Origin: Candidatus Obscuribacteraceae bacterium
GTDB taxonomy: Bacteria > Cyanobacteriota > Vampirovibrionia > Obscuribacterales > Obscuribacteraceae
Length of the DNA stretch: 64,000 bases
NCBI GenBank assembly: GCA_044226015.1
Contig: JBGAHS010000001.1
Location: 512,001-576,000 of the forward strand
Direction of reading: 5' to 3'
This document shows, piece after piece, positions 12,136 through 53,910 of this stretch. Below the pieces are notes generated by a model, which was not told where the DNA came from, ran no database searches, and saw only the letters and a program-made list of their open reading frames with translations. The position numbers and the translations under genes were made by a program. Within the stretch, counting starts at the first letter, position 1; every line of letters begins with the position of its first letter.

Positions 12136-12687
12136 ATGAAAACGCTTTTGAGCATTACAGCTCTTGCGACAATCATTTTCGCTTCAGGCACACCGGCATT
12201 CGGTGAGGAATATGCTGACCATGGTTATGAATTGTTGCTCAGAGGAAATTACCAGCAGGCTGTTGTTTATTTGACAGCTGCCGTGAAAATAAATCCGACT
12301 GATCTGGATATTCGCAGGCGTCTCTGCTCAGCATACGTGGGCGCCGGCATGTCTAAAGATGCAATTCAACAGATGAGAGTTATTGGCACTGTTAGCCCGC
12401 TTACAGCTGAAGATATCAGTTTGCAGGCAGATGCGTATTCTCAATTAGGTGACACAAAAACTGCGATTCTAAGATACAAGCAGGCATTGCAAGTTGACCC
12501 GACATATGGTGCAGCTCGAATTGCGCTGGCAAAGATTTTACTTTTTGCTGGTGATTACACTAATGCTCGTGCCGCTTGCAATGACACTCTCCGGACTTCG
12601 AAAGATCCTCTAGTGCGTAAGCAAGCGATGGATATGCTGGGTGCGCTTAAAGATAAAGAGAGAGCTCATATCACAGAGAAAGCTTGA
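12136..12687 (+). CDS. Exported TPR-repeat protein
   Basis: AGGAG RBS, signal peptide (AFG|E), TPR-like helical repeats. Confidence 0.8.
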   Translation: MKTLLSITALATIIFASGTPAFGEEYADHGYELLLRGNYQQAVVYLTAAVKINPTDLDIRRRLCSAYVGAGMSKDAIQQMRVIGTVSPLTAEDISLQADAYSQLGDTKTAILRYKQALQVDPTYGAARIALAKILLFAGDYTNARAACNDTLRTSKDPLVRKQAMDMLGALKDKERAHITEKA

Positions 12688-12710
12688 TAAAGAAAGAGTA
12701 GGGTCGAATT

Positions 12711-13253
12711 ATGTTCATCGTAAAATCCAGGAAAAATTGCAAAGGGTCATTCATAGCGGAGGCTCCTCTTGCCCTGTGGGTGCTGTTTTTCGTGTTTACT
12801 TTTCCTTTTCTCGATTTTGCAACCATCATGTTGCGTTACACCTTTATGGTGTCCGCCGTGCGCGACGGAGTTCATGCTGCTGCTCATGCAAAAACTTTCA
12901 GCAGTAACATTTCCGCTACTAACCTCTCAGCCATTAACGCTGCTTCCCAAGCAGCGAACCTGACTGCGTCTGCATTTAGCGAAATCGCAGTCAGTAATAT
13001 CAGATCGCGAATCCTTCAAACAAACATTACTACTAAAGTGCTCACAATTTATTCTTACAATACAGCATTGGCCTCAGTTGCTGATGATTCCGTGAATTTG
13101 TACGAAATTGAAACCGTAGTCAGCGGCTCTATTAAACCGCTTATTACTATGAACACTGGCTATTTTCCTGGTATTCCGGGATTGACGACGCCTCTTCCCG
13201 TCACGCTGTCGGCACGCGAATACTGTGAGTACCCGCAGGGACTCAATCAATAA
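12711..13253 (+). CDS. TadE-like minor pilin
   Basis: Basic leader RKNCKG|SFIAE (G-1/E+5), hydrophobic helix, AVRDGVHAAA. Confidence 0.8.
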   Translation: MFIVKSRKNCKGSFIAEAPLALWVLFFVFTFPFLDFATIMLRYTFMVSAVRDGVHAAAHAKTFSSNISATNLSAINAASQAANLTASAFSEIAVSNIRSRILQTNITTKVLTIYSYNTALASVADDSVNLYEIETVVSGSIKPLITMNTGYFPGIPGLTTPLPVTLSAREYCEYPQGLNQ

Positions 13254-13285
13254 TTATCTGGCGACTTTGATTCAGGAGTTTTACC

Positions 13286-15064
13286 ATGAGAGCATATAGA
13301 CCCCAAAGGCAGAATGGACAAGCCATGGTCGTTCTCTGCGCGATTATTTCGATTTTGATTTTATTTGTGGTGGGATTGTTTTCCTACGAAGTAAATCGAG
13401 TAGAAGTTTGCCGAACCCAGTTGCGTTCTGCTACTGAAGCGGCAGCGCTGGCGGCTGCAGCGACTCTGGCCAGCCAGGACAATCAAGACCCGGCTGCGGC
13501 TCACAACGAGGCAATTCAGACAGCCATAAGCACTTTCACGCAAAATAGTGTCGCTGGAACTGGACTCGCCAACGCTATTCTTGCCTTTGGTAACAATGAT
13601 TCGCCGACTGCTAACCACTCATCTCTTTTTATTGAATTTCTGGATCCGAACAGGAACAATGTGCCAGTCAACGTTGGCGACCCTGCCGGAAAGATTGTTC
13701 GCATAACTAGCGCTTTTGGCTTGTTGCCATCCTTTGGCAATTTCTTGGGACTGAGCACTGTGCCGCTACGAACTACTGCGATGGGTGGCGTGCCGGACCT
13801 CGATGTTGTTCTCTGTTTCGATTGCTCTGGCTCCATTGATGACCAGACGCCGGTAAGCATGGTTCGGCGGGAGTGGGTTGCCAGCAGTGGTGGCAAGGTT
13901 CAGTATACGGTCGCCAGCACAAGAGCCGGTTCGGCTGCAGGAGCACTTGCGCAAGGAAGAATTTACGACATCATCGGACCTGCACCTACCGGCACTAGAG
14001 TCAATGCGCTCTATCCACAAAATTTAGCTCAAGTTGGTTCAGGCAATCGGTGGAATCTACAATTCAGTCCGGCGCTGAGAAGTCGTGCGCCATCTTCTTC
14101 GGGTACGACAAACAACGAGTCGAATCCTGTACAGGGCTATCCACCTGGTAATCTCAGCAGCACCGTCAGCGGGGTTGATAGATACACAGTAACTGATGTC
14201 GTTGTGAATATAGATGGTAAAAACACTTTTGGTGGGCTCACCACAGGTGATGGCTACGCTTTTCCTGATATCGCAACTTTAGTTGAAGCTTCAAGAGGCA
14301 ACCTGGAAAACGACACGGTTTTCAGAAACAGCAGAGCGAATACTGGTGTGCCAAGCACGATAAGACCAAGAGCTGGATACCAGGCAAAGTATTTTGAGAT
14401 GGCGCGTAATAATTGCCACCCTATTAAGGATGCTCAGGATGCAGCTGCGACTTTCTTCACTGTAATGAATACCAATACCGTTGGACATTTCTCTTTGTCT
14501 TGCTTTTCAGATGATGGTGGCGGCTCAACTGTAAGAGATTGGCGAATTGATAGCTCTTACACAGCCGCTGGTTATGAGAATTTTGAAAAGCCAATGATTC
14601 CGCTCAGTCGAGCCGTGGGTGATACTAAGTATAATACTATTATTGGTGCGTTGCCAGGTACTGAAGCCTTGCATGGAACTAATATTGGAGATACTCTCAA
14701 CGTAGCCGTCACACAGCTAAGTACAAATTCTAGACCTGGTTCGAAAAAGGCCATCGTTTTGTTTACTGATGGTATGCCTACAGTGGGAGGACCTCTAAGC
14801 GGCGACCCGTGGACTAACGCGCGTCTTGCAGCTGACAGGGCCCGAAGAGCTGGAATCCCGATTTACTCTATCGGTCTTGCTCAAAATCCTGAAATAGTTC
14901 CTCAAGAAACACAGATTCTAACTGATGCAAATAGCAGTTTGAACTCTGGTGGTGTAAGTGGTATTGCCGGGCATGGTGGCAAATTCTTCCTCGTTACTGA
15001 TACGAAAGATTTGCGACTCACTTTTGAGAACATCGCCCGTCAGTTAGTGCAACTGGTGCACTAA
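13286..15064 (+). CDS. TadG-like pilus-associated protein with vWA domain
   Basis: RQNG|QAM leader, TM helix, QLRSATEAAALAAA, MIDAS DCSGS ... GTN ... FTDG. Confidence 0.85.
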   Translation: MRAYRPQRQNGQAMVVLCAIISILILFVVGLFSYEVNRVEVCRTQLRSATEAAALAAAATLASQDNQDPAAAHNEAIQTAISTFTQNSVAGTGLANAILAFGNNDSPTANHSSLFIEFLDPNRNNVPVNVGDPAGKIVRITSAFGLLPSFGNFLGLSTVPLRTTAMGGVPDLDVVLCFDCSGSIDDQTPVSMVRREWVASSGGKVQYTVASTRAGSAAGALAQGRIYDIIGPAPTGTRVNALYPQNLAQVGSGNRWNLQFSPALRSRAPSSSGTTNNESNPVQGYPPGNLSSTVSGVDRYTVTDVVVNIDGKNTFGGLTTGDGYAFPDIATLVEASRGNLENDTVFRNSRANTGVPSTIRPRAGYQAKYFEMARNNCHPIKDAQDAAATFFTVMNTNTVGHFSLSCFSDDGGGSTVRDWRIDSSYTAAGYENFEKPMIPLSRAVGDTKYNTIIGALPGTEALHGTNIGDTLNVAVTQLSTNSRPGSKKAIVLFTDGMPTVGGPLSGDPWTNARLAADRARRAGIPIYSIGLAQNPEIVPQETQILTDANSSLNSGGVSGIAGHGGKFFLVTDTKDLRLTFENIARQLVQLVH

Positions 15065-15079
15065 GAAAGGAATGCAGAT

Positions 15080-15562
15080 ATGTTGAATCAATTGAAACGC
15101 AAAGCACTCAGAAGTCGACGAACTCGCGCTCATTCGTTGATAGAAGTAAGCCTGCTGTCTGTCTTGTTTGTCGTTATTGCAATTCTCTGTCTAGATGTAG
15201 GCTACGTCATGATGGGCTCGCAGCTGAATGATAGGGCTTGTCGCGATGCTGCTCGCGCTGCTGCTGAGGCAGACAATTATCTCAGTTCATTGCAGATGGC
15301 ACAGGCTGCGGTAATTCCTCACAAAGGAGATGGATATTGGGTTACTAGTCCCACCGTGGTGACATCGAAATTCATCTATCAGGACTTCAGCGGAAGTCCG
15401 CCCACGAACGTCAGCCCATTTGTGACGGTAACCACAGATTGCGATGTACGACTGCCGGCTCCAATTTTCTTTCTTGGTGCAAGCTTCAAAGCAAATGGCA
15501 TCATGAATTTTTCCAAGACCTATACTTTTCCAATTGTCAAAACGACGCTTTATTTGAACTAA
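15080..15562 (+). CDS. TadE-like minor pilin
   Basis: RRTRA|HSLIE (E+5), hydrophobic helix, ACRDAARAAA. Confidence 0.8.
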   Translation: MLNQLKRKALRSRRTRAHSLIEVSLLSVLFVVIAILCLDVGYVMMGSQLNDRACRDAARAAAEADNYLSSLQMAQAAVIPHKGDGYWVTSPTVVTSKFIYQDFSGSPPTNVSPFVTVTTDCDVRLPAPIFFLGASFKANGIMNFSKTYTFPIVKTTLYLN

Positions 15563-16068: not shown

Positions 16069-16223
16069 GAAATGTATTTATAAGACAGTGTGTATCGATC
16101 GCATATCTCGTTTCTGGCTGAATGGATCCTGAAACAGTTGTCACACAATGTTTTGCGGCTTCCTATTCTCATTTGCACCTTACTATGATACATTTGTCTG
16201 GTATCACCAGTGAAGGCGGGGCG

Positions 16224-16841
16224 GTGAAAAAAGGATTTCGCATTATTGGCATTGACCCGGGTACTGCTACCACCGGCTATGGTGTCATCGATCTTCTTTC
16301 CCAAAACAAAATTCATTACATTGGCTCTGGTACGATTCAGACCAGCAAGGACTTGATGATGTCTATGCGATTGAAAACAATTCGCGAGGACATCATTTCT
16401 TTAATTGATTTGTATTCGCCAGACGCCCTGGCAATCGAATCTATCTTCTTTTTCAAGAATGCGAAGACGCTAGTTCCTGTTGCTCAGGCTCGTGGTGTGA
16501 TCATCGAGGCTGCTGCGTCCAGAAATTTAGAACCTGCAGAATATACGCCAATGCAGGTAAAAATGAGCGTCACTGGTTACGGTAAGTCAGAGAAAAGCGA
16601 AATTCAGGCTATTGTTGCGAAGTTACTCAATCACGCAAGCATCATCAAACCAGACGATGCTTGCGACGCTGTAGCTATCGCTATTTGTCACGCAAGAAAT
16701 CGTGTTTCAATGAATCCCCAGGGGGAGTTCAGCGTCGCACCGCCCCCTGCACCGAAAACGATCACGAAATCGGCGAAGTCAATCAAGTCTCCAGCGGCTG
16801 CTAGCTTTGTGCCGCCAATAGCTCCTGTTATACCAGTTTGA
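16224..16841 (+). CDS. ruvC: Holliday junction resolvase RuvC with Pro-rich C-terminal tail
   Basis: IIGIDPG, AIESIFF, QARGV, GYGKSEK, DDACDAVAIA; GTG start at 16224 preferred. Confidence 0.95.
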   Translation: MKKGFRIIGIDPGTATTGYGVIDLLSQNKIHYIGSGTIQTSKDLMMSMRLKTIREDIISLIDLYSPDALAIESIFFFKNAKTLVPVAQARGVIIEAAASRNLEPAEYTPMQVKMSVTGYGKSEKSEIQAIVAKLLNHASIIKPDDACDAVAIAICHARNRVSMNPQGEFSVAPPPAPKTITKSAKSIKSPAAASFVPPIAPVIPV

Positions 16842-16891: not shown

Positions 16892-16937
16892 AAAAAAAAA
16901 ACAAAAAAGGAGCAGAACCCCCGTTCTACTCCTTTTC
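16892..16937 (-). terminator. Intrinsic terminator, strongest on the - strand, possibly bidirectional
   Basis: AAAAGGAGTAGAAC-GGG-GTTCTGCTCCTTTT stem with a G-U pair on the - strand, followed by a long U run. Confidence 0.85.
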
Positions 16938-17064
16938 AGACCTGAGCCAGCCCATGACTCATACGTTTTGAGAGTTCACAAAATCGAATTTCCCAGCCCC
17001 GGAATTTCCGATTTTCGTTTCGCGATTTCTCGCGCCCCCAGCGAACTCTTTAGCGCGTCCGGTG
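16900..17064 (-). ncRNA. Candidate structured small RNA (~165 nt), family unknown
   Basis: Five helices with G-U wobbles that pair only on the - strand, own terminator, TAATAT -10-like box at 17075-17070, no ORF longer than 8 aa seen. Confidence 0.65.
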
Positions 17065-17174
17065 ATTAGATATTAATATCGGGCAGCGCTTATTCTCATG
17101 TGTTTATATTCCGACTTGACCTGTGCATTTATGCACATCAGAACAGGCATTGTTCCCGCCCGTCGCAAGCGCTG

Positions 17175-18092
17175 CTAGCTTTCTATCTTGACCCAAGCTT
17201 TTCCCTCTAGGCCAAAACTAAAAGTCTCTGGATGCAAAATTTCGGCTACTATCTGCAGTGACTCTTTAACTCGAGGTCCTGGTCTATTGAAGAATTGATT
17301 TCCGTCGGCAATAAACGCCCGTTTATTTATTACTGCAGACAACTCGTTCCAGCCCAGGCGATCTTTCAAGTCTTGCAGTTCCTCCAGGCTCTGAGCAATG
17401 CCGAAACCGCATGGTGCAATTATCAAAACATCAGGATTCGCCTCTGTGAGTTTTGCCCAATCCATTACTGCTGAGTGTTTTCCGGCTTCCCCAAAGATGT
17501 CTATGCCACCCCCCATTGTGACCAGTTCTGGCATCCAGTTACCGCTAGCCATTAAGGGGTCTATCCATTCAATTAAGCCTACCCTGGGCTTTTCGGGCAG
17601 GCTGTTTGCTTTTTGTTGTATCTCGGCCATCTCTGACTGAACTTGCTTTATCAGTTTTACAGCATTTTCTTTGACACCGCACGCGGTGGCGACTCTTTCG
17701 ATGTCTGCCCAAATGTCGCTGAGTTGGTTTGGCTCAAGCGAAACTATTTTGGGTTCTGAGCTTATCATTTCGCAGACTGCTGTCTCGACATCTTTCAGGC
17801 TGACAGCACAAACCTCACATTGCGATTGCGTAATGATATGAGAGGGTTGAAGCTTTGATAGAAGGTCAGCGTCTACCCGATAAACGCTTAGCGATTCTTG
17901 CAAAATTCGCCGCACTCGTTCATCAATCATGTAACTTTTCCCGTCCACGTTAAATTTAGGCGACGTGCAAACAGGTAAACTCTTTACTGACTCGGGATAG
18001 TCACATTCGTGTGAGCGCCCGACCATGAATTCTCGTAGCCCGAGAGCACAAAGAATTTCAGTTGAGCTGGCAATTAATGATACGATTCGCAT
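17175..18092 (-). CDS. BtuF/cobalamin-binding-like (class III SBP fold) protein lacking a signal peptide
   Basis: MRIVSL..STE, GRSHECDYP, GNWMPELV, FNRPGPR. Confidence 0.82.
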   Translation of the reverse strand: MRIVSLIASSTEILCALGLREFMVGRSHECDYPESVKSLPVCTSPKFNVDGKSYMIDERVRRILQESLSVYRVDADLLSKLQPSHIITQSQCEVCAVSLKDVETAVCEMISSEPKIVSLEPNQLSDIWADIERVATACGVKENAVKLIKQVQSEMAEIQQKANSLPEKPRVGLIEWIDPLMASGNWMPELVTMGGGIDIFGEAGKHSAVMDWAKLTEANPDVLIIAPCGFGIAQSLEELQDLKDRLGWNELSAVINKRAFIADGNQFFNRPGPRVKESLQIVAEILHPETFSFGLEGKAWVKIES

Positions 18093-18849: not shown

Positions 18850-21800
18850 ATGCCAGTCATATCCACGCCCGGTGTCGCGCGCCTGTCTTACGTTGTGGTC
18901 GCGCTATCAGTCTTGTTGCAGCCCAGCAGAGCTGTTCAAGCCGCAGATTTACCAATTAACCTGAATTTGTCGTCCACGCAAAAAACAGTACGTGTGCCAG
19001 GCAGTTTTGCAAACCCTGTCCAGATTCAAGTTGGAAATTCAAAACAAACGGTTTCGGCTGGGTCCGTGATCACCCCTGCGCAAATGTTGGCTGTACAACA
19101 GGTGCTTTCCTCTGGCTCTCAGTCCATAGTTATAGGTTCGCTGGGAAATGCTGTTGGCGGAAACTTCCAGCTTGCGAGCAATCAGACTTTCAACAATGTA
19201 ACCGTGCCTCGCAACGTCACACTCATAAACAACTTTTCCGGCGGAAGCCCATTTAACCTATCAGGCAATCTTGTAAATTACGGACATATTTTTGCTGTTT
19301 CTGAAAATTCTGCGGTCAGTAACGCTTTATTCTCAGCGCACAACATTACTAATTACGCTGGTGGACTCATAAGCAGCATGCTTCCTGGTGGTGGCATTGC
19401 GGGTTTCAGCAATGCCATTCCGAATTTGAGTCTTTCTCTTTTTGCCGTTAACAACATTCTCAACAACGGAAGCATCACCAGTGCTGGCAATCTGAACCTT
19501 GTGGCTGGCAATTCCATCATTAACAACAGCGCTGTCAGCGCTGCACCGGCTGTGATGTCAGCACTGGGCAACGTCAATATTGCGACACAAAACCTGGTAA
19601 ACAGCGGACTGCTGCAATCTTCGCTGGGCAACATTAACATTGTTGAGCAAGTGATTCGCAGTAATGAACTTTCGGCGCTAGCTCAATCAGCCAGTCTTAA
19701 CAGTGTTTTGGCTAATTACTCCAATACCAGAAATCTGAACATCAATAATGTTGGTGGCGTTATCGAAGCCCTGAAAGGTAGCGTCTCAATTGATTACAGC
19801 AATGCCCTTGAGAAAAATCTTCTTTCGTTTCATGGGGGCGATGTTCTATCTGATTCGTTAAAGATTGATGCAGGAAAGGGTGTCGTCAATATGTCACTCG
19901 AAAATTTGAGTGGCACTATCGATGTTAGTGCTGGCTGTGCTCAGATAGGCACATTGAGTTCGGCTTTGAATCTTGGTGACATCAATATAACTGGCGACCC
20001 GACTTTTTACAGCGCCTCTAATTTGAATCTCGCTGTGGGTCAGAAATTGCAGTTTGACGAGAAGATCAACTTACTGGCTGCCGGTGATATCAACCTTGGC
20101 GATGGAACTCTCTCTAAGTCTCTAGGGACTCAGGGCTACGACATCACAGTTGTCGCTGGTGGTGCTCTTACTGTAACGCCGGGAGCTCCTGTTTTTCCAA
20201 CTCAGATAACTGGAACCCAAACCGTGAAGGTAAGCGGACCTTCAAACACTGGTGGCAATATCAATTGCAGCACTTGTGTTATCGATACGTCATCAACAGG
20301 ACCCGGACAGAATGGTGGCAAAGTCATGCTGGCTGCCTTTAGCGACGTAAATGGCAACAAAGGAAATATAAGTTTTGCTGGTTCAATAAATACTTCCTCT
20401 ACATTTGAAAAGTCAGGTAGTGTCACTGTTATTGCACCGAACAATATTAGTCTGGGCAAGATTGATTCTACTGCTGCGAAAATCAGCACTAGCACCTCAG
20501 TACTTAACGTGAGCACCGCACAGCCATCAGGCACAATTACTGCCTCATCCAACGGCAACGTCAGCGGAAGTTTGACTGCTAAAACGATTACAAATGGCTC
20601 GGTCACTTTCACTGGAGCTGCTGCGGTGCACAGTGGTTCAATCAATGTAAAAGCTGGTAATGCGATCGTTCTTGCTAATGGAAGCAGCCTCGATACTAGC
20701 GGCTTTTACTTCACATTAGGTGGCGGTGCGGTAAAGCTTGATGCTGTGGGACCTACTGGACACATCGACCTCGGTGGCACCATTAACGTAAACGCCACTG
20801 ATGGACAAGATGGTGTAAGTCCAGGGCAAGCAGGGTCCGCAGCTGCTAAGGCAGGTTCAGTTACGATGACTGCTACTAGCGCTATAAATTCTCCTCTGGC
20901 TATGACTCTTACCGCTTTTGGCGGAAGCGGAGGCAAAGGTGCTGCTGGTTTGGCAGGAACCGCTTCGAAAGTCGCCGGCGGAAGTGGAGGTGCCGGGGGT
21001 GTTGGTACCGCTGGTGGTGTGGTGACAATAAAAGCACCTAGCGTCGACTTGAGTCTTGCTTCCATCAGTCTTTACGGTGGCTATGGTGGCGATGGTGGGG
21101 CCGGTGGCGCTGGATTTGGAGGCACTGCCGCTGCCGGTGGAGCCGGTGGCAAAGGTGGTGCCGGCGGCAAAGCGGCACCTGGTGGCACTTTGACTGTCAC
21201 TTCCACGAGCACATCGGGCGTGACTAATCTTTTCGCCCCGCTTAGCTTGATTTCGCTTGGCGGCAATGGTGGCGCAGGTGGTGCAGGTGCTGCTGGCGGC
21301 AGTAGCACTAAGACTAATGGCGGAGCTGGTGGAGCTGGCGGTGCCGGTGGGCTGGCTGAAGTCGGCGGTAAAGTGACGCTCACTGCCCCACTGGGAATAG
21401 CGCTAAATGGCGACATGGCGGTCGATGCAGGCTTCGGTGGAACCGGAGGACTTGGCGCTGCTGGAGGCAATGCAAGTGGTTCTGGCAACACTGGTAAGGG
21501 TGGAGCCGGCGGCTCTAGTGGAGCAGGTGGTGCTGGTGCTGCAGGCGGTACGGTCACCGTGACTGGTGGCAGCGTGTCGTTCGGTCATGGTGCCTTGACC
21601 AAGATAACTGCCTTTGGTGGTGACGGAGGCGCAACACTGGATGCCAAAGCTGGAGGTACTAGCACCGCAGGTACGGGCGGCGCCGGAGGCATCGCCGGTA
21701 ACAGTGGTAATGGTGGCATGGGCGGTACAGTGAAAATTACCGCTACAGCCGGAGGAATCGTAAACACTGGCAATACTGACTTGACCATTAGAGCCGATGG

Positions 21801-24800
21801 TGGATTTGGCGGAGCGCCAAATGGTGACGGAGGCGCCGGTGGGTCAGGTGCGATCGGCGGCAATGGTGGTCACGCAAGCAACGCCGGTTCTGGAGCTAAG
21901 GGAGGCACTATAACCCTGCTTGCTTCAAAAGGACTTGTTCAAACTGGCAACAAGCAGAAAGGTCTCATCAGTGCTTCTGCTGGTAGTGCTCAAGACCCTG
22001 TGAGTGCAACTCTGGGCGGACTCGGTGGTGTAGGATCTGTCGGTCTTGCAGGCAATGGCGGGGCGGGCGCCGTCGGCGGAAATGGTGGTATAGGTGGAAC
22101 CGTCACTCTTACTGGCACTGGTGTCATTTCTGATGGTTCAATAGAAGTATTTGGTGGTTCTGGATCCAGTGGGTTCGGTGCCGGTGCTGGTGCTTCTGGC
22201 AAAACTACCGGTGGATCTGGAGGTGCCGGAGGTAAAGGCGGCATTGGCGCCATAGGTGGCAACGTCACGATCACCGGAAATACTACCGGAGTTATAGCTA
22301 GATCCGGAATTTTTGGCGACGGTGGCAAAGGCGGTTTCGGTGCATCCGGCGGAATTGGTGCTTCTGGAGAAAACGGTGGCAATGGCGGTGCAGGAGGAGC
22401 TGGCGGCTCCGCAGGAAAGGGCGGCAATCTCACTATTTCTGGCTTGTCGGTTTCACTTCAGTCCGTGGATTTCCGCGGCAACCAGGGTGGCATCGGCGGG
22501 GCTGGACTAGCTGGCGCTACAGGCAGCAACGGCAAGGGGGGGTCTGGTGGTGCCGCAGGAGGCGGTGGCAACGGCGGCAGCGGCGGAATCGTCAATATCA
22601 AAACGCTGGCGGGAAGCATTCTGGCGAACAACTTCATTCTAGTGGATGGCTTCACCGGTGGCGACAACGCTGATGCTGGAAACGGTGGCATTGGAACCAC
22701 TCTGGGAGGAAATGGCGGAAATGTCGGAGCGGCTGGTGCTGGTGGCAGCTCAGGTAACATCACTATCTCAGCAAAGGGCGGCAACATTCAATTATTTGAA
22801 CTCAGTGCTATTGGAGGAGTCGGCGGAAACGCTATTGGTGATGGTGGCGATGCTGCTAGTGGAACTGGCTTGAAAGCCAACGGCGGATTAGGAGGTATCG
22901 CTGGAAATGCTGGCGCTGGTGGTGCCGGTGGCATAATATCTGTTAGCGCGAGCACATCTAGCGGAATAGCAAATATTCAGGCTGCCACAAACTACAGCAT
23001 CATCGCTAACGGCGGTGCTGGTGGAGCCGCTAAGGGCGGAGGTGGCAATGGTGGCGCATCTATTAATGGCGGCAAAGGTGGTGCCGGTGGTTCTGGCAGT
23101 GCTGGAGGTGCAGGTGGTGCAGGTGGAAGCATCACACTGAATGCACTAAAAGGTACTGTTTCAGACAACGCCACAGCAGGCGATATTCAAGCCGTTGGAG
23201 GTGCAGGAGGAAGCGCACCTTCTATTGCAACTGTGCTTGCGGACCTACCTACAGGCGGAAAAGGAGGCAATGGAACGCTTGCTGGAGGCAATGGCGGTGC
23301 CAGCGGACGAGGTGGTAATGGTGGTACTGGCGGCAAATTGACAGTCAATGCAATCTCCATCAGCAATCTTACCGATATGTACTTCGATGGTGGCGCAGGC
23401 GGTGGCGGCATCTTTGCCGGTGGAGCAGGCGGAACATCTTCAGGTGGAGCCGGTGGTATAGGTGGTGCTGGTGGCAGCGGTGGAGCCGGCGGGTTCGGTG
23501 GCAATGTCACACTGAATTCAACGGGGGTTGCTGGTGTCACCCTGGTTCAACAAGTGTCAAACGTTGGTGGCAATGGTGGCAGTCTGGTCTCGGTCAACGG
23601 AACCATCAACTCTGGTGGCGGTGCGGGAGGAGATAGTGGCGGTCTAACTAACGGTGGTGCAGGTGGTGCTTCCGGCAACGGTGGCAATGGCGGTCGGGGT
23701 GGCAGTCTGACTTTCACTGCTGTAGGCGCAGGCACCATCACTCTCAAGGCAGCAAATCTTTTTGTGCCAGGTGGTGTGGGCGGCAGTGTTCAATCTCTTG
23801 GTGGTGTTGGCGGTAACTCTAGTTCTAGGGTCGGTGGTGCAGGCGGCAAAGGTGGTTCTGCTGGCAGCGGTGGAGCCGGTGGGCTTGTAGTTTTTGTGAC
23901 TGGCTCTGGTGAGACTCAAGTTGACCAGATAGTTGCTGATGGTGGAGATACCGGTGCAATCTCTCTTTTAGCAGTGGGCGTCCCGAGTGGAGGCGGTGCA
24001 GGCGGCAATGGACTCACTGGAGGCGGCGTTGGCGGATCTTTCAGTAATCTCGCGATTGGCGGATTGGGTGGATCTGTAATTGTCCGCTCCGTTTCTGGAA
24101 ATTACACGCAGAATATCTCCAACAATGGCTCTAACATTTTTCTGCGCGGAGGCAACGGATTAAGTGCCAACGCCGTAGGGGGCAAGGGCGGTAGCGCATC
24201 TGGGGGCACAGGCGGTGTGGGAGGAAACTCGGGCGCAGGTGCAAGTGGAGGCGCCGGTGGATTCTTTCAATACACAGGTTCTGGAACCATCAAACTCACG
24301 TCAGGCTCCTCAATGACTCTTAGCGGCGGTTCGGGAGGCTCGGCGCTGCAGATTGGAGGCGTTGGTGGTACTGGATTGGGTGGAGTCGGTGGCAAGGGCG
24401 GCAATGGTGGCGCTGGAGGCTCCGGTGGTGCTGGTGGAAACTCCACTATAATCAATTCTGGAACTGGCGCAATCTCCGGAAGCAGTTCTACCATTAATGT
24501 AAATGGTGGAACTGGTGGTAACGCCGCTGATGCTGGTGCTGGAGGCGTCGGCGATGCAGGTGGTGTCGGCGGTAATGGTGGCGCTGGTGGTAGCACTGGG
24601 AAGGGTGGTGTCATTAGTTATAGCACCATAAGTGGTGCCATAATACTTGGCACGGCAAGCGCTCAAAGCTTGAATTCTGGCAATGGTGGCAAAGGTGGTA
24701 ATGGAGGCGCTGGCAACGTATTTCAAGGCGGGGCTGCGGGCAATGGAGGCAGTGCTGGTAATACTGGTAATGGTGGCAACATCACGATAACGGTTCAACA

Positions 24801-25542
24801 AGGAGCTGCCACTGTTACTGCATCTAGTGTGGCTGCCGGCAGTCTCGGAACTGCTGGAGGTGCTGGTAACTCAGGCACACCTAGCGGGGGGTCAGGCTCT
24901 GCAGGTGGTGCTGGTACCAAGGGTAGCGCTGGAAGTAAGATCATCAGTAATTTAGATGATGATTCATTTCCTTCTCTACGCAAGCGCAGGCATTCCTCAG
25001 AAGACCTCAAGCCAGTCGCGTTCGTTGAGAGCATTCTCTTGATGGATGGCAAACAATTCAATGCCAGCAATACTTTCCTTGCGCCGACAGAAAAGGACTT
25101 TCTGGCGCATACAAGTCATGCTGACATAAGCGTTTCGCAGGGGTCGCTTGCGTTCGTTGTAGACAACGGTCGGGACGTCTCTGTACTTGCTCTGCATGAG
25201 TCGAGGTCGGGCAAAATCACGGTGCATCTCGAAAATCGCGAGATCGTGCTGCACTCGGGTGAGCAGGTGATTATCACCGATTCAGATTTGGGTGCCAATG
25301 AGGCGAATCCTCTTACTCAGGTAGCAAGAAGGAATACTACCGAACACAACTTCAAATCGCATAGGGTATTTCTCAGCGAGTTTTCGATTCCCTCGGCGCT
25401 CGCATCACTGAAGCCTCTTAATAGACTCTCGCGTTCAGAGTCCAGGGCAGAAAAAGCAAGTTACTTCAAAATCCTGAAGAACGCTGCAGCTATTCAAGCT
25501 GTGAATGGTGTGCGAAAGGGAGCCTACAAACTGGGCTCCTGA
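18850..25542 (+). CDS. Giant secreted beta-strand/glycine-rich (PGRS-like) protein with conserved C-terminal domain
   Basis: 2230-aa ORF, Sec signal (AVQA|A), beta-helix-like Asn/Ser/Gly N-terminal region, ~1400 aa of GGxGGx repeats, CTD homologous to that of 53972..64000. Confidence 0.88.
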   Translation: MPVISTPGVARLSYVVVALSVLLQPSRAVQAADLPINLNLSSTQKTVRVPGSFANPVQIQVGNSKQTVSAGSVITPAQMLAVQQVLSSGSQSIVIGSLGNAVGGNFQLASNQTFNNVTVPRNVTLINNFSGGSPFNLSGNLVNYGHIFAVSENSAVSNALFSAHNITNYAGGLISSMLPGGGIAGFSNAIPNLSLSLFAVNNILNNGSITSAGNLNLVAGNSIINNSAVSAAPAVMSALGNVNIATQNLVNSGLLQSSLGNINIVEQVIRSNELSALAQSASLNSVLANYSNTRNLNINNVGGVIEALKGSVSIDYSNALEKNLLSFHGGDVLSDSLKIDAGKGVVNMSLENLSGTIDVSAGCAQIGTLSSALNLGDINITGDPTFYSASNLNLAVGQKLQFDEKINLLAAGDINLGDGTLSKSLGTQGYDITVVAGGALTVTPGAPVFPTQITGTQTVKVSGPSNTGGNINCSTCVIDTSSTGPGQNGGKVMLAAFSDVNGNKGNISFAGSINTSSTFEKSGSVTVIAPNNISLGKIDSTAAKISTSTSVLNVSTAQPSGTITASSNGNVSGSLTAKTITNGSVTFTGAAAVHSGSINVKAGNAIVLANGSSLDTSGFYFTLGGGAVKLDAVGPTGHIDLGGTINVNATDGQDGVSPGQAGSAAAKAGSVTMTATSAINSPLAMTLTAFGGSGGKGAAGLAGTASKVAGGSGGAGGVGTAGGVVTIKAPSVDLSLASISLYGGYGGDGGAGGAGFGGTAAAGGAGGKGGAGGKAAPGGTLTVTSTSTSGVTNLFAPLSLISLGGNGGAGGAGAAGGSSTKTNGGAGGAGGAGGLAEVGGKVTLTAPLGIALNGDMAVDAGFGGTGGLGAAGGNASGSGNTGKGGAGGSSGAGGAGAAGGTVTVTGGSVSFGHGALTKITAFGGDGGATLDAKAGGTSTAGTGGAGGIAGNSGNGGMGGTVKITATAGGIVNTGNTDLTIRADGGFGGAPNGDGGAGGSGAIGGNGGHASNAGSGAKGGTITLLASKGLVQTGNKQKGLISASAGSAQDPVSATLGGLGGVGSVGLAGNGGAGAVGGNGGIGGTVTLTGTGVISDGSIEVFGGSGSSGFGAGAGASGKTTGGSGGAGGKGGIGAIGGNVTITGNTTGVIARSGIFGDGGKGGFGASGGIGASGENGGNGGAGGAGGSAGKGGNLTISGLSVSLQSVDFRGNQGGIGGAGLAGATGSNGKGGSGGAAGGGGNGGSGGIVNIKTLAGSILANNFILVDGFTGGDNADAGNGGIGTTLGGNGGNVGAAGAGGSSGNITISAKGGNIQLFELSAIGGVGGNAIGDGGDAASGTGLKANGGLGGIAGNAGAGGAGGIISVSASTSSGIANIQAATNYSIIANGGAGGAAKGGGGNGGASINGGKGGAGGSGSAGGAGGAGGSITLNALKGTVSDNATAGDIQAVGGAGGSAPSIATVLADLPTGGKGGNGTLAGGNGGASGRGGNGGTGGKLTVNAISISNLTDMYFDGGAGGGGIFAGGAGGTSSGGAGGIGGAGGSGGAGGFGGNVTLNSTGVAGVTLVQQVSNVGGNGGSLVSVNGTINSGGGAGGDSGGLTNGGAGGASGNGGNGGRGGSLTFTAVGAGTITLKAANLFVPGGVGGSVQSLGGVGGNSSSRVGGAGGKGGSAGSGGAGGLVVFVTGSGETQVDQIVADGGDTGAISLLAVGVPSGGGAGGNGLTGGGVGGSFSNLAIGGLGGSVIVRSVSGNYTQNISNNGSNIFLRGGNGLSANAVGGKGGSASGGTGGVGGNSGAGASGGAGGFFQYTGSGTIKLTSGSSMTLSGGSGGSALQIGGVGGTGLGGVGGKGGNGGAGGSGGAGGNSTIINSGTGAISGSSSTINVNGGTGGNAADAGAGGVGDAGGVGGNGGAGGSTGKGGVISYSTISGAIILGTASAQSLNSGNGGKGGNGGAGNVFQGGAAGNGGSAGNTGNGGNITITVQQGAATVTASSVAAGSLGTAGGAGNSGTPSGGSGSAGGAGTKGSAGSKIISNLDDDSFPSLRKRRHSSEDLKPVAFVESILLMDGKQFNASNTFLAPTEKDFLAHTSHADISVSQGSLAFVVDNGRDVSVLALHESRSGKITVHLENREIVLHSGEQVIITDSDLGANEANPLTQVARRNTTEHNFKSHRVFLSEFSIPSALASLKPLNRLSRSESRAEKASYFKILKNAAAIQAVNGVRKGAYKLGS

Positions 25543-53798: not shown

Positions 53799-53910
53799 GC
53801 GTCAATCAACCAAGCTATCTGCTACGTTCCACAGTGAGTAAAAAGAGGAAAGTGTTGCTTCGTTCGCGATGATGCTGCATGAATGTGCAATTCATTTCAG
53901 TATGATTTCG

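Follow-up and report, generated by a model that had tools for sequence, protein, structure and literature searches.

Sponge RNAs have been reviewed as a class (PMC13501541). RosA (S345) from Bacillus subtilis, according to the part of the preprint available to us, pairs through its G-rich regions with C-rich regions of RoxS and FsrA and is itself devoid of C-rich regions (10.1101/814905). QrrX from Vibrio cholerae inactivates four sibling small RNAs (sRNAs) via conserved pairing sequences, as stated in the accessible sections of the respective paper (PMC9732341), and NsiR1 from Nostoc, to go by the excerpt of the article at hand, is a ~60-nt sRNA whose copies, up to 12 in tandem, carry a promoter motif of their own (PMC9045159).

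The element analyzed here lies in a 64,000-nt window (the whole stretch of DNA that was analyzed) from Candidatus Obscuribacteraceae bacterium (GCA_044226015.1, JBGAHS010000001.1, positions 512,001-576,000). The labels G000-G007 denote genomes of one Obscuribacterales genus, G000 being the window's own genome, and X, Y and Z are our own labels for accompanying putative sRNA families, sRNA-Y being unrelated to the Ro60-bound Y RNA family, for which Rfam gave no match to the element.

Like RosA and RsaI (the latter from Staphylococcus aureus), the element is predicted to stand alone, to have its own regulated promoter and to direct several G-rich regions against C-rich regions of more than one sRNA (10.1101/814905, in the part available). 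It differs from these two RNAs in that it belongs to another phylum, has no demonstrated sequence relation to them and was predicted from sequence alone, that its sites repeat GG(G)CTGG exactly and lie in hairpin loops, that one partner family comprises up to 12 copies, and that its promoter box is common to one partner. With QrrX, as described in the accessible sections, it would share that one sponge faces sibling sRNAs, that both pairing sides are conserved and that there are conserved promoter elements (PMC9732341). However, QrrX is bound to Hfq and triggers decay by RNase E; QrrX and the Qrr RNAs respond to different activators, but the element and sRNA-Z have one box in common; and QrrX has one partner family, the element two (PMC9732341, same sections). 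NsiR1 resembles the families X and Y in layout and is from the same cyanobacterial phylum but differs from them in sequence and lineage, and the excerpt at hand mentions no natural sponge for it (PMC9045159). No homology of the element to RosA, QrrX or NsiR1 is shown. A literature search found no sRNA paper for Obscuribacterales, Obscuribacter or Vampirovibrionia, although survey supplements may list these motifs, and no paper on sibling-sRNA sponges in cyanobacteria. We regard the element as a real and hitherto undescribed RNA family, probably of the sRNA-sponge kind, which is already known as a class, and predicted together with its partners.

Location and Predicted Transcription Signals

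The features that define the element and its surroundings are the following:

16899..17063, minus strand: predicted ~165-nt non-coding RNA, start placed 7 nt past the -10 box
17121..17136, no strand assigned: palindromic regulator box of the CTGY-N8-RCAG type, centre near -65
17094..17101, minus strand: conserved -35-region element, 18 nt upstream of the -10 box in 6/6 homologs
17070..17075, minus strand: -10 box TAATAT (TAWTAT in homologs)
17059..17063, minus strand: 5' leader, predicted in 4/6 cofolds to pair with the second C-run of sRNA-Y, which adds another short helix
16891..16937, minus strand: intrinsic terminator hairpin and U run, also facing the convergent ruvC
17175..18092, minus strand: upstream neighbour, gene of a periplasmic-binding-protein family (PF01497)
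16122..16841, plus strand: ruvC, downstream convergent neighbour

In all six homologs the palindromic box is followed after 19 nt by the -35-region element, after another 18 nt by TAWTAT and 7 nt further on by an A, and because this layout is fixed the start was placed at 17063 and the length at ~165 nt. A 201-nt contig, obtained in one of four DNA sequencing runs, represents a partial further homolog with identical promoter spacing. The first-pass annotation had placed the TAATAT hexamer within a perfect palindrome (17069-17080); the hexamer is kept in 6/6 homologs, whereas the palindrome is specific to G000.

It could be argued that there is no separate transcript and that the locus is a 3'UTR of the binding-protein gene, the terminator region of ruvC or a silent conserved DNA element. 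Indeed, 4/6 loci have the binding-protein gene upstream of the element and in the same orientation, and the body of the element, taken by itself, exceeds shuffled sequences in stability by only a little. In the other two loci (G003 and G005), however, a divergent pseudouridine-synthase gene takes the upstream position of the binding-protein gene, and yet the box, the -35/-10 spacing and the terminator are kept. Conversely, of the 30 loci read, 7 or more have the binding-protein gene directly next to ruvC and no element between them. For both reasons the element is not the 3'UTR of the upstream gene, an origin that the first-pass annotation had left open; that gene, there called BtuF-like, does belong to the PF01497 family but scores below the BtuF cut-off. 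Considering also that the spacing of box, -35 and -10 is fixed in 6/6 loci, we hold any reading in which a separate transcript is absent to be very improbable.

A riboswitch or leader was rejected because there is no same-strand gene downstream in the G000, G003, G004, G006 and G007 loci, in all of which the downstream gene is convergent, and the compared homologs have no shared or conserved small ORF. The element is a folded and conserved non-coding unit, likely with its own transcription; the standalone sRNA that had been proposed is favoured by conservation and covariation, by the conserved layout of the promoter and by the fact that the element persists where the upstream gene is absent. 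Further in the window, positions 12136-15562 (plus strand) carry TPR, TadE-like and Tad/VWA pilus-type genes, which are syntenic with ruvC in relatives, and positions 18850-25542 (plus strand) encode a 2230-aa glycine-rich protein with a signal-peptide-like start.

Fold and Covariation

The minus strand contains, each in its place, every stem named in the first-pass annotation, the four unpaired stretches rich in G, the palindrome and the terminator followed by its U run. Besides the terminator, the fold consists of:

16971..17049, minus strand: three-way junction domain (P1, P2, P3)
17041-17049 with 16971-16979, minus strand: P1, covaries
17021-17034, minus strand: P2
16980-17015, minus strand: P3, covaries
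16943-16961, minus strand: hairpin P4, holds site 2

The 165 nt from the predicted start fold with -64.3 kcal/mol (z -4.8), a value reached by 0/200 shuffles. It should be noted that the terminator contributes much of this stability, the body alone having a z of -2.0 in G000 and of -0.04 to -2.3 in five homologs. There are 8 G-U pairs on the minus strand versus 2 on the opposite strand in G000, and in 6/6 homologs it is the minus strand that yields the better fold and the larger number of G-U pairs, in agreement with the orientation that had been assigned.

The structure of the element is real. In the 6-row alignment both sides change in 20/38 pairs and 89.6% of the cells pair, which exceeds 500/500 shuffles and all slid controls. 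Since the alignment was fitted to the proposed structure and its rows are kin, the covariation leans in favour and does not go further than that. The helices that covary across the six homologs, whose collection the first-pass annotation had recommended, are P1, P3 and the terminator, which form the scaffold. The closing stem that had been proposed is present in the sequence of G000 but is not conserved and is specific to this genome. Similarly, the G-rich unpaired segments exist in G000, but the GGGG of the terminator loop is G000-specific, and what the homologs have in common is the motif GG(G)CTGG rather than G-runs. Single folds had also shown a hairpin at the 5' end, around the -10 box; the consensus lacks it, and it was discarded.

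Known RNA Classes

Rfam gave 0 matches at the gathering score in the window, the best one (E 0.048) being a terminator-only match; no known family thus matches the element, as the first-pass annotation would have it, a null result that covers RosA and QrrX only if Rfam models for them exist. 6S RNA is a long rod with a central bubble. The fold of the element is branched and the best RF00013 candidate of G000 lies elsewhere, and 6S RNA was rejected. That candidate (L011, C6:800550-800755, minus strand) is a rod with a closing stem and a sigma-70-like promoter and is likely the 6S RNA, although its 23.2 bits are below the Rfam cut-off. SRP RNA (RF00169) and RNase P RNA (RF00010) were also rejected, both being found above cut-off elsewhere in G000.

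CsrB/RsmZ RNAs carry repeated GGA motifs in loops. A protein sponge in their manner had been suggested for the element, which resembles them, as far as the accessible part of the review goes, in a motif repeated in hairpin loops (PMC13501541). Its motif, however, is GGGC-based, not GGA, the sole conserved GGA sits in a stem, and CsrA (PF02599) was not found in G000 (0/1 genome, 92% complete, controls positive), and membership of this class is not supported. Other RNA-binding candidates encoded in G000 are an Hfq-related protein of the type seen in cyanobacteria (C7, L236:1459-1695; 52.3 bits at an NCBIfam cut-off of 52) and, elsewhere, five RRM proteins.

Homologs and Distribution

The element was found in 6/8 genomes of one Obscuribacterales genus. 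BLAST of 61 genomes yielded two homologs, a third came from reading downstream of the best 30 binding-protein loci, and a four-row covariance model (R1), run on 104 genomes of the family (the 8 of the window's genus and 96 others), added those of G003 and G005 with 55 and 54 bits. A six-row model (R2), applied to the best 24 candidates in each of the 104 genomes, gave no further full match, and with the covariance models there was none among the best 24 candidates per genome in the 96 genomes outside the genus; distant forms may be missed because 24 candidates were scored per genome. A GTDB-wide pattern search returned 14 loci, 4 of which are known homologs, these 4 records standing under Obscuribacterales. 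Metagenome patterns gave 0 and at least 121 loci (among 52/64 parts) and a viral pattern search 3 loci, none of them matching model R1, and the matches of a 13-nt motif search, which was abandoned, were mostly coding noise.

G002, in which neither ruvC nor the binding-protein gene was found, contains on C116 (L322:1531-1645) a divergent, shorter unit that agrees with the element in its -10 box and 5' end and has a GGGCTGG site ahead of a terminator. Judged by these features, it is likely a reduced sponge.

The Two Invariant Sites

Only two runs of at least 5 nt are invariant in the six-way alignment, and both contain GG(G)CTGG. They are listed together with a third G-rich segment:

16993..16999, minus strand: site 1, the GGGCTGG of the P3 tip loop, unchanged in 6/6
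16941..16953, minus strand: site 2, within and just past hairpin P4, predicted to form a ~13-bp duplex with the sRNA-Z core
17035..17042, minus strand: G-rich linker, contains an invariant GGGG and fits X and Y weakly

Site 1 is the perfect 7-bp complement of CCAGCCC, which is found in sRNA-Y (nt 2-8) and in sRNA-Z, and site 2 is predicted to form 6-8 bp with sRNA-Y. In each site 4-5 bases are predicted to be unpaired, and opening would cost 4.1-6.5 kcal/mol. The earlier idea of an RNA that pairs with C-rich targets thus holds up, the predicted duplexes indicating that the targets are likely small RNAs rather than mRNAs. Our preferred explanation, which we consider probable though by no means certain, is that the element is an RNA sponge like RosA and QrrX, the two invariant sites of which would pair with the C-rich stretch of Z and Y and block them. 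The element has conserved complementarity to a conserved single-stranded region of other sRNAs, the complementarity to Z being a post-selection result. It should be mentioned that the comparison is based on six related rows and that neither strand of the duplexes varies appreciably, which leaves no true covariation between the two molecules.

A repeated hairpin-loop motif on a covarying scaffold would also be expected if the GG(G)CUGG loops were displayed to an RNA-binding protein other than CsrA, for which the five RRM proteins and the Hfq-related protein would come into question. In one model, the motif stands just ahead of 8 terminators in G000 versus 1.5 expected; however, this excess is gone when compared with control words (1.6% versus 0.2-2.4%), and pairing with Y and Z predicts the same excess. 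Also rejected, for not exceeding control words, was the motif as a general protein-binding element of 3'UTRs. A hairpin nearly identical to P4 is situated ahead of the terminator in the tail of an HSP20 gene in G007 (C21, L052:1501-1556), with a predicted Z pairing of -23 kcal/mol; as a conserved carrier of the motif it was rejected, since it is not retained in 3/3 orthologs read, which also weighs against a protein ligand. Moreover, no CsrA was found in G000, and binding of a protein leaves the fit of the invariant tail of site 2 to Z unexplained. We therefore consider a protein sponge to be quite unlikely.

sRNA-Z

The predicted partner that would account for this tail is encoded in G000 at:

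C3:309130-309213 (locus L428), minus strand: sRNA-Z, ~80-nt unit with a small 5' hairpin, a C-rich core, a terminator and the box

sRNA-Z is present as a single copy in G000 and in up to 4 copies per genome elsewhere. Among the 104 genomes searched, its 20-nt core recurs exactly in 11 and near-exactly in a twelfth, together from six genera (two further matches with 2 mismatches were coding and were dropped). The distance from box to -10 is 45-46 nt in 17/18 copies, as at the element, and a GntR/MocR-like gene (read by eye) precedes Z in 10 genomes. Rfam gave no match above cut-off for the Z loci. Z was not found in G003 (91% complete), G005 (70% complete) and G001, the first two of which carry the element.

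The predicted duplex of Z with site 2 comprises ~13 bp with a 2-nt bulge and has -22.4 to -29.3 kcal/mol in 6/6 homologs (G003 and G005 computed with the Z of G000); it would explain the invariant tail of site 2, which Y does not. Against site 2, Z ranks 1/997 among pre-terminator windows with the runner-up 3 kcal/mol weaker, and in a whole-RNA worst-case screen it ranks 30/997. The whole-RNA duplex with Z averages -27.2, reached by 0/1000 dinucleotide shuffles of Z, and the cofold gain of element and Z is -14 to -22. The shuffle test must be read as post-selection, since Z was first met as the rank-2 match in pairing screens of pre-terminator windows, in which it stood above Y; the independent part of the case for Z consists of the conservation of its core and the shared box, both of which were checked after selection. 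In G007, site 2 has a 2-nt insertion that sits exactly at the 2-nt bulge of the duplex, and this homolog has the best energy. The least fit is G004, where the Z duplex is matched by 86/300 RNA shuffles.

A base-pairing sRNA could also regulate mRNAs containing CCAGCC(C), the match to Z and Y then being secondary or due to chance. Exposed invariant loops suit pairing with mRNAs, an Hfq-related protein is encoded, and site 2 is predicted to pair with two translation-start regions at -23.2 and -21.8 kcal/mol. Yet among 5752 such regions only one pairs slightly better than Z, and in translation-start windows CCAGCC is rarer than its complement (47 versus 99). Regulation of mRNAs as the primary function of the element thus appears unlikely. 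For Z there are 56 translation-start regions at or below -22 kcal/mol versus a mean of 14.5 and a maximum of 27 in 8 mononucleotide shuffles, which suggests that Z may act on mRNAs. The best predicted target of Z, and the second-listed one of Y, is the leader of a 484-aa gene without a Pfam match (L361, G000 C8:288282-289736).

sRNA-Y and sRNA-X

The copies of the other two families in G000 are located as follows:

C11:52149-56091 (7 copies), C11:1386947, C11:1387714, C1:1238279, C6:678340 and C9:543811: sRNA-Y, ~60 nt
C11:356000-356579 (3 copies), C11:363539-363766 (2 copies) and C3:336676: sRNA-X, ~60 nt, same box

sRNA-Y, which was exposed by the control of the X pairing test, is the commonest repeated pre-terminator 12-mer in G000. 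It is found in 8/8 genomes of the genus, with 12 copies in G000, 8-9 in five relatives and 1 in two, and outside the genus with 5 copies each in two genomes of another genus. Each copy has a -10 box, a direct-repeat upstream motif unlike the palindromic box (there are several promoter subtypes) and a terminator, and the first ten bases are identical across the bona fide copies read. Nucleotides 2-8 (CCAGCCC) exactly complement both sites, with about -16.5 kcal/mol per site. The chance of CCAGCCC in a 20-mer of Y composition is 0.8%, and two perfect Y 7-mers exist in 5/6 homologs, each reached by 7-53/2000 RNA shuffles; in G004 site 2 has a mismatch to Y. The two-site energy is reached by 25/500 dinucleotide and 8/500 mononucleotide shuffles, and in the whole-RNA worst-case screen Y ranks 7-113/997. 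The complement of the Y heptamer has a raw rank of 1/42 permutations but of 19/42 once normalized, and Y, too, may act on mRNAs. Two candidate targets were rejected: a 226-aa gene, whose site is not kept in 10 homolog loci, and the recN leader, in which just a 5-nt match is kept, in some Y-bearing genomes.

sRNA-X, which was met by following box sites with no gene behind them, is a short C-rich unit with a terminator. It has 6 exact copies in G000, is multi-copy in 6/8 genomes of the genus and was met with in no other genus; its cluster adjoins recN in at least three genomes. One hexamer is common to X and Z, and another to Y and Z. The whole-RNA duplex of X with the element is matched by 344/500 shuffles and the cofold gain is just -3 to -6.5, and because the pairing is no better than with shuffles X is not claimed as a partner. 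For the X and Y loci, Rfam gave sub-threshold matches only.

That the pairing is real but works in another direction was also considered: Z and Y would then regulate the element or co-assemble with it, forming a stable complex or undergoing mutual decay, and there would be no dedicated decoy. The same complementarity would be seen, and one box for element and Z would suit a stoichiometric partner. However, Z and Y are older and more widespread than the element and therefore work without it, and the element has no ORF or other known output. Such a reversed relationship is, in our estimation, distinctly unlikely. It counts against the sponge reading, on the other hand, that in seven genomes outside the genus (from five other genera), which have Z and/or multi-copy Y, no element homolog could be found, and that no Z was found in G003 and G005.

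Two further gene-free units in G000 end in a Y/Z-complementary site and a terminator. One of them (L366, C3:336791-336900) has no DNA match in 7 relatives; the other (L367, C11:44300-44830) contains three repeats of ~115 nt.

The Palindromic Box and Its Regulon

The box is common to the element, to sRNA-Z, to most sRNA-X promoters and to a large regulon. Its sites within the window are:

2567-2582
17121-17136
53875-53890

A first matrix found 27 intergenic sites with at least 15 bits in G000 versus 6 in a Markov control, and an iterated matrix 56 versus 0, the iteration having been done on the same data. At 88 gene-linked sites a -10-like hexamer is commonest at +46 (7/88), which is the distance at the element. 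Altogether, the CTGY-N8-RCAG regulon of G000 has roughly 50-90 sites, mostly ahead of lineage-specific genes. Of the 39 box-adjacent proteins scanned, 25 have no match in Pfam; among the others are a GH25 lysozyme, LysM, LprI, three protease families, kinases and TPR proteins. The spacing of the box resembles that of a LexA operator, but control by LexA was rejected because no such box is found upstream of lexA. A candidate for the regulator is the product of the GntR/MocR-like gene adjacent to Z.

Proposed Mechanism and Implications

If the element is a sponge of Z and Y, pairing would start from the 4-5 exposed loop bases of each site, which would contact the C-rich, unstructured part of Z or Y; the weak helices at the tips (4-6.5 kcal/mol) would open, and the presumed seed of the partner, which would be a base-pairing sRNA, would become covered. 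Site 2 would zip ~13 bp onto Z, and both sites could take 7 bp of the 5' end of Y. One regulator acting at the upstream box may induce both the sponge and Z, so that the sponge would set a threshold or a time limit for Z and would silence the separately regulated Y copies. Because the box is common to sponge and Z but not to Y, a single signal would increase X, Z and the sponge alike and, through the sponge, dampen Z and silence Y.

A more far-reaching proposal, which we put forward as a tentative one and would sooner doubt than accept, is that the element is the hub of an all-RNA switch in Obscuribacterales. X, Y and Z (~19 genes in G000) would be read by a multi-site sponge, by short sponges and by pre-terminator seed matches in mRNAs, nt 2-8 of Y being a microRNA-like seed, and one global regulator would induce X, Z and sponge and thereby switch a lifestyle programme made up of lineage-specific, envelope-active and proteolytic proteins.

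Most sponge RNAs known so far were discovered by ligation sequencing, in a small number of cultured model organisms. In the present case a probable sponge, its putative partner families and the box of a common regulator can be read from genomes alone, and this in a lineage that is uncultured and sister to the photosynthetic cyanobacteria. The element and its companions would provide four new RNA families for Rfam, and the predicted pairs are exact enough for cheap tests in vitro and with reporters in Escherichia coli. A sponge that is co-induced with its partner would bear on the evolution of sibling-sRNA circuits and of their off-switches.
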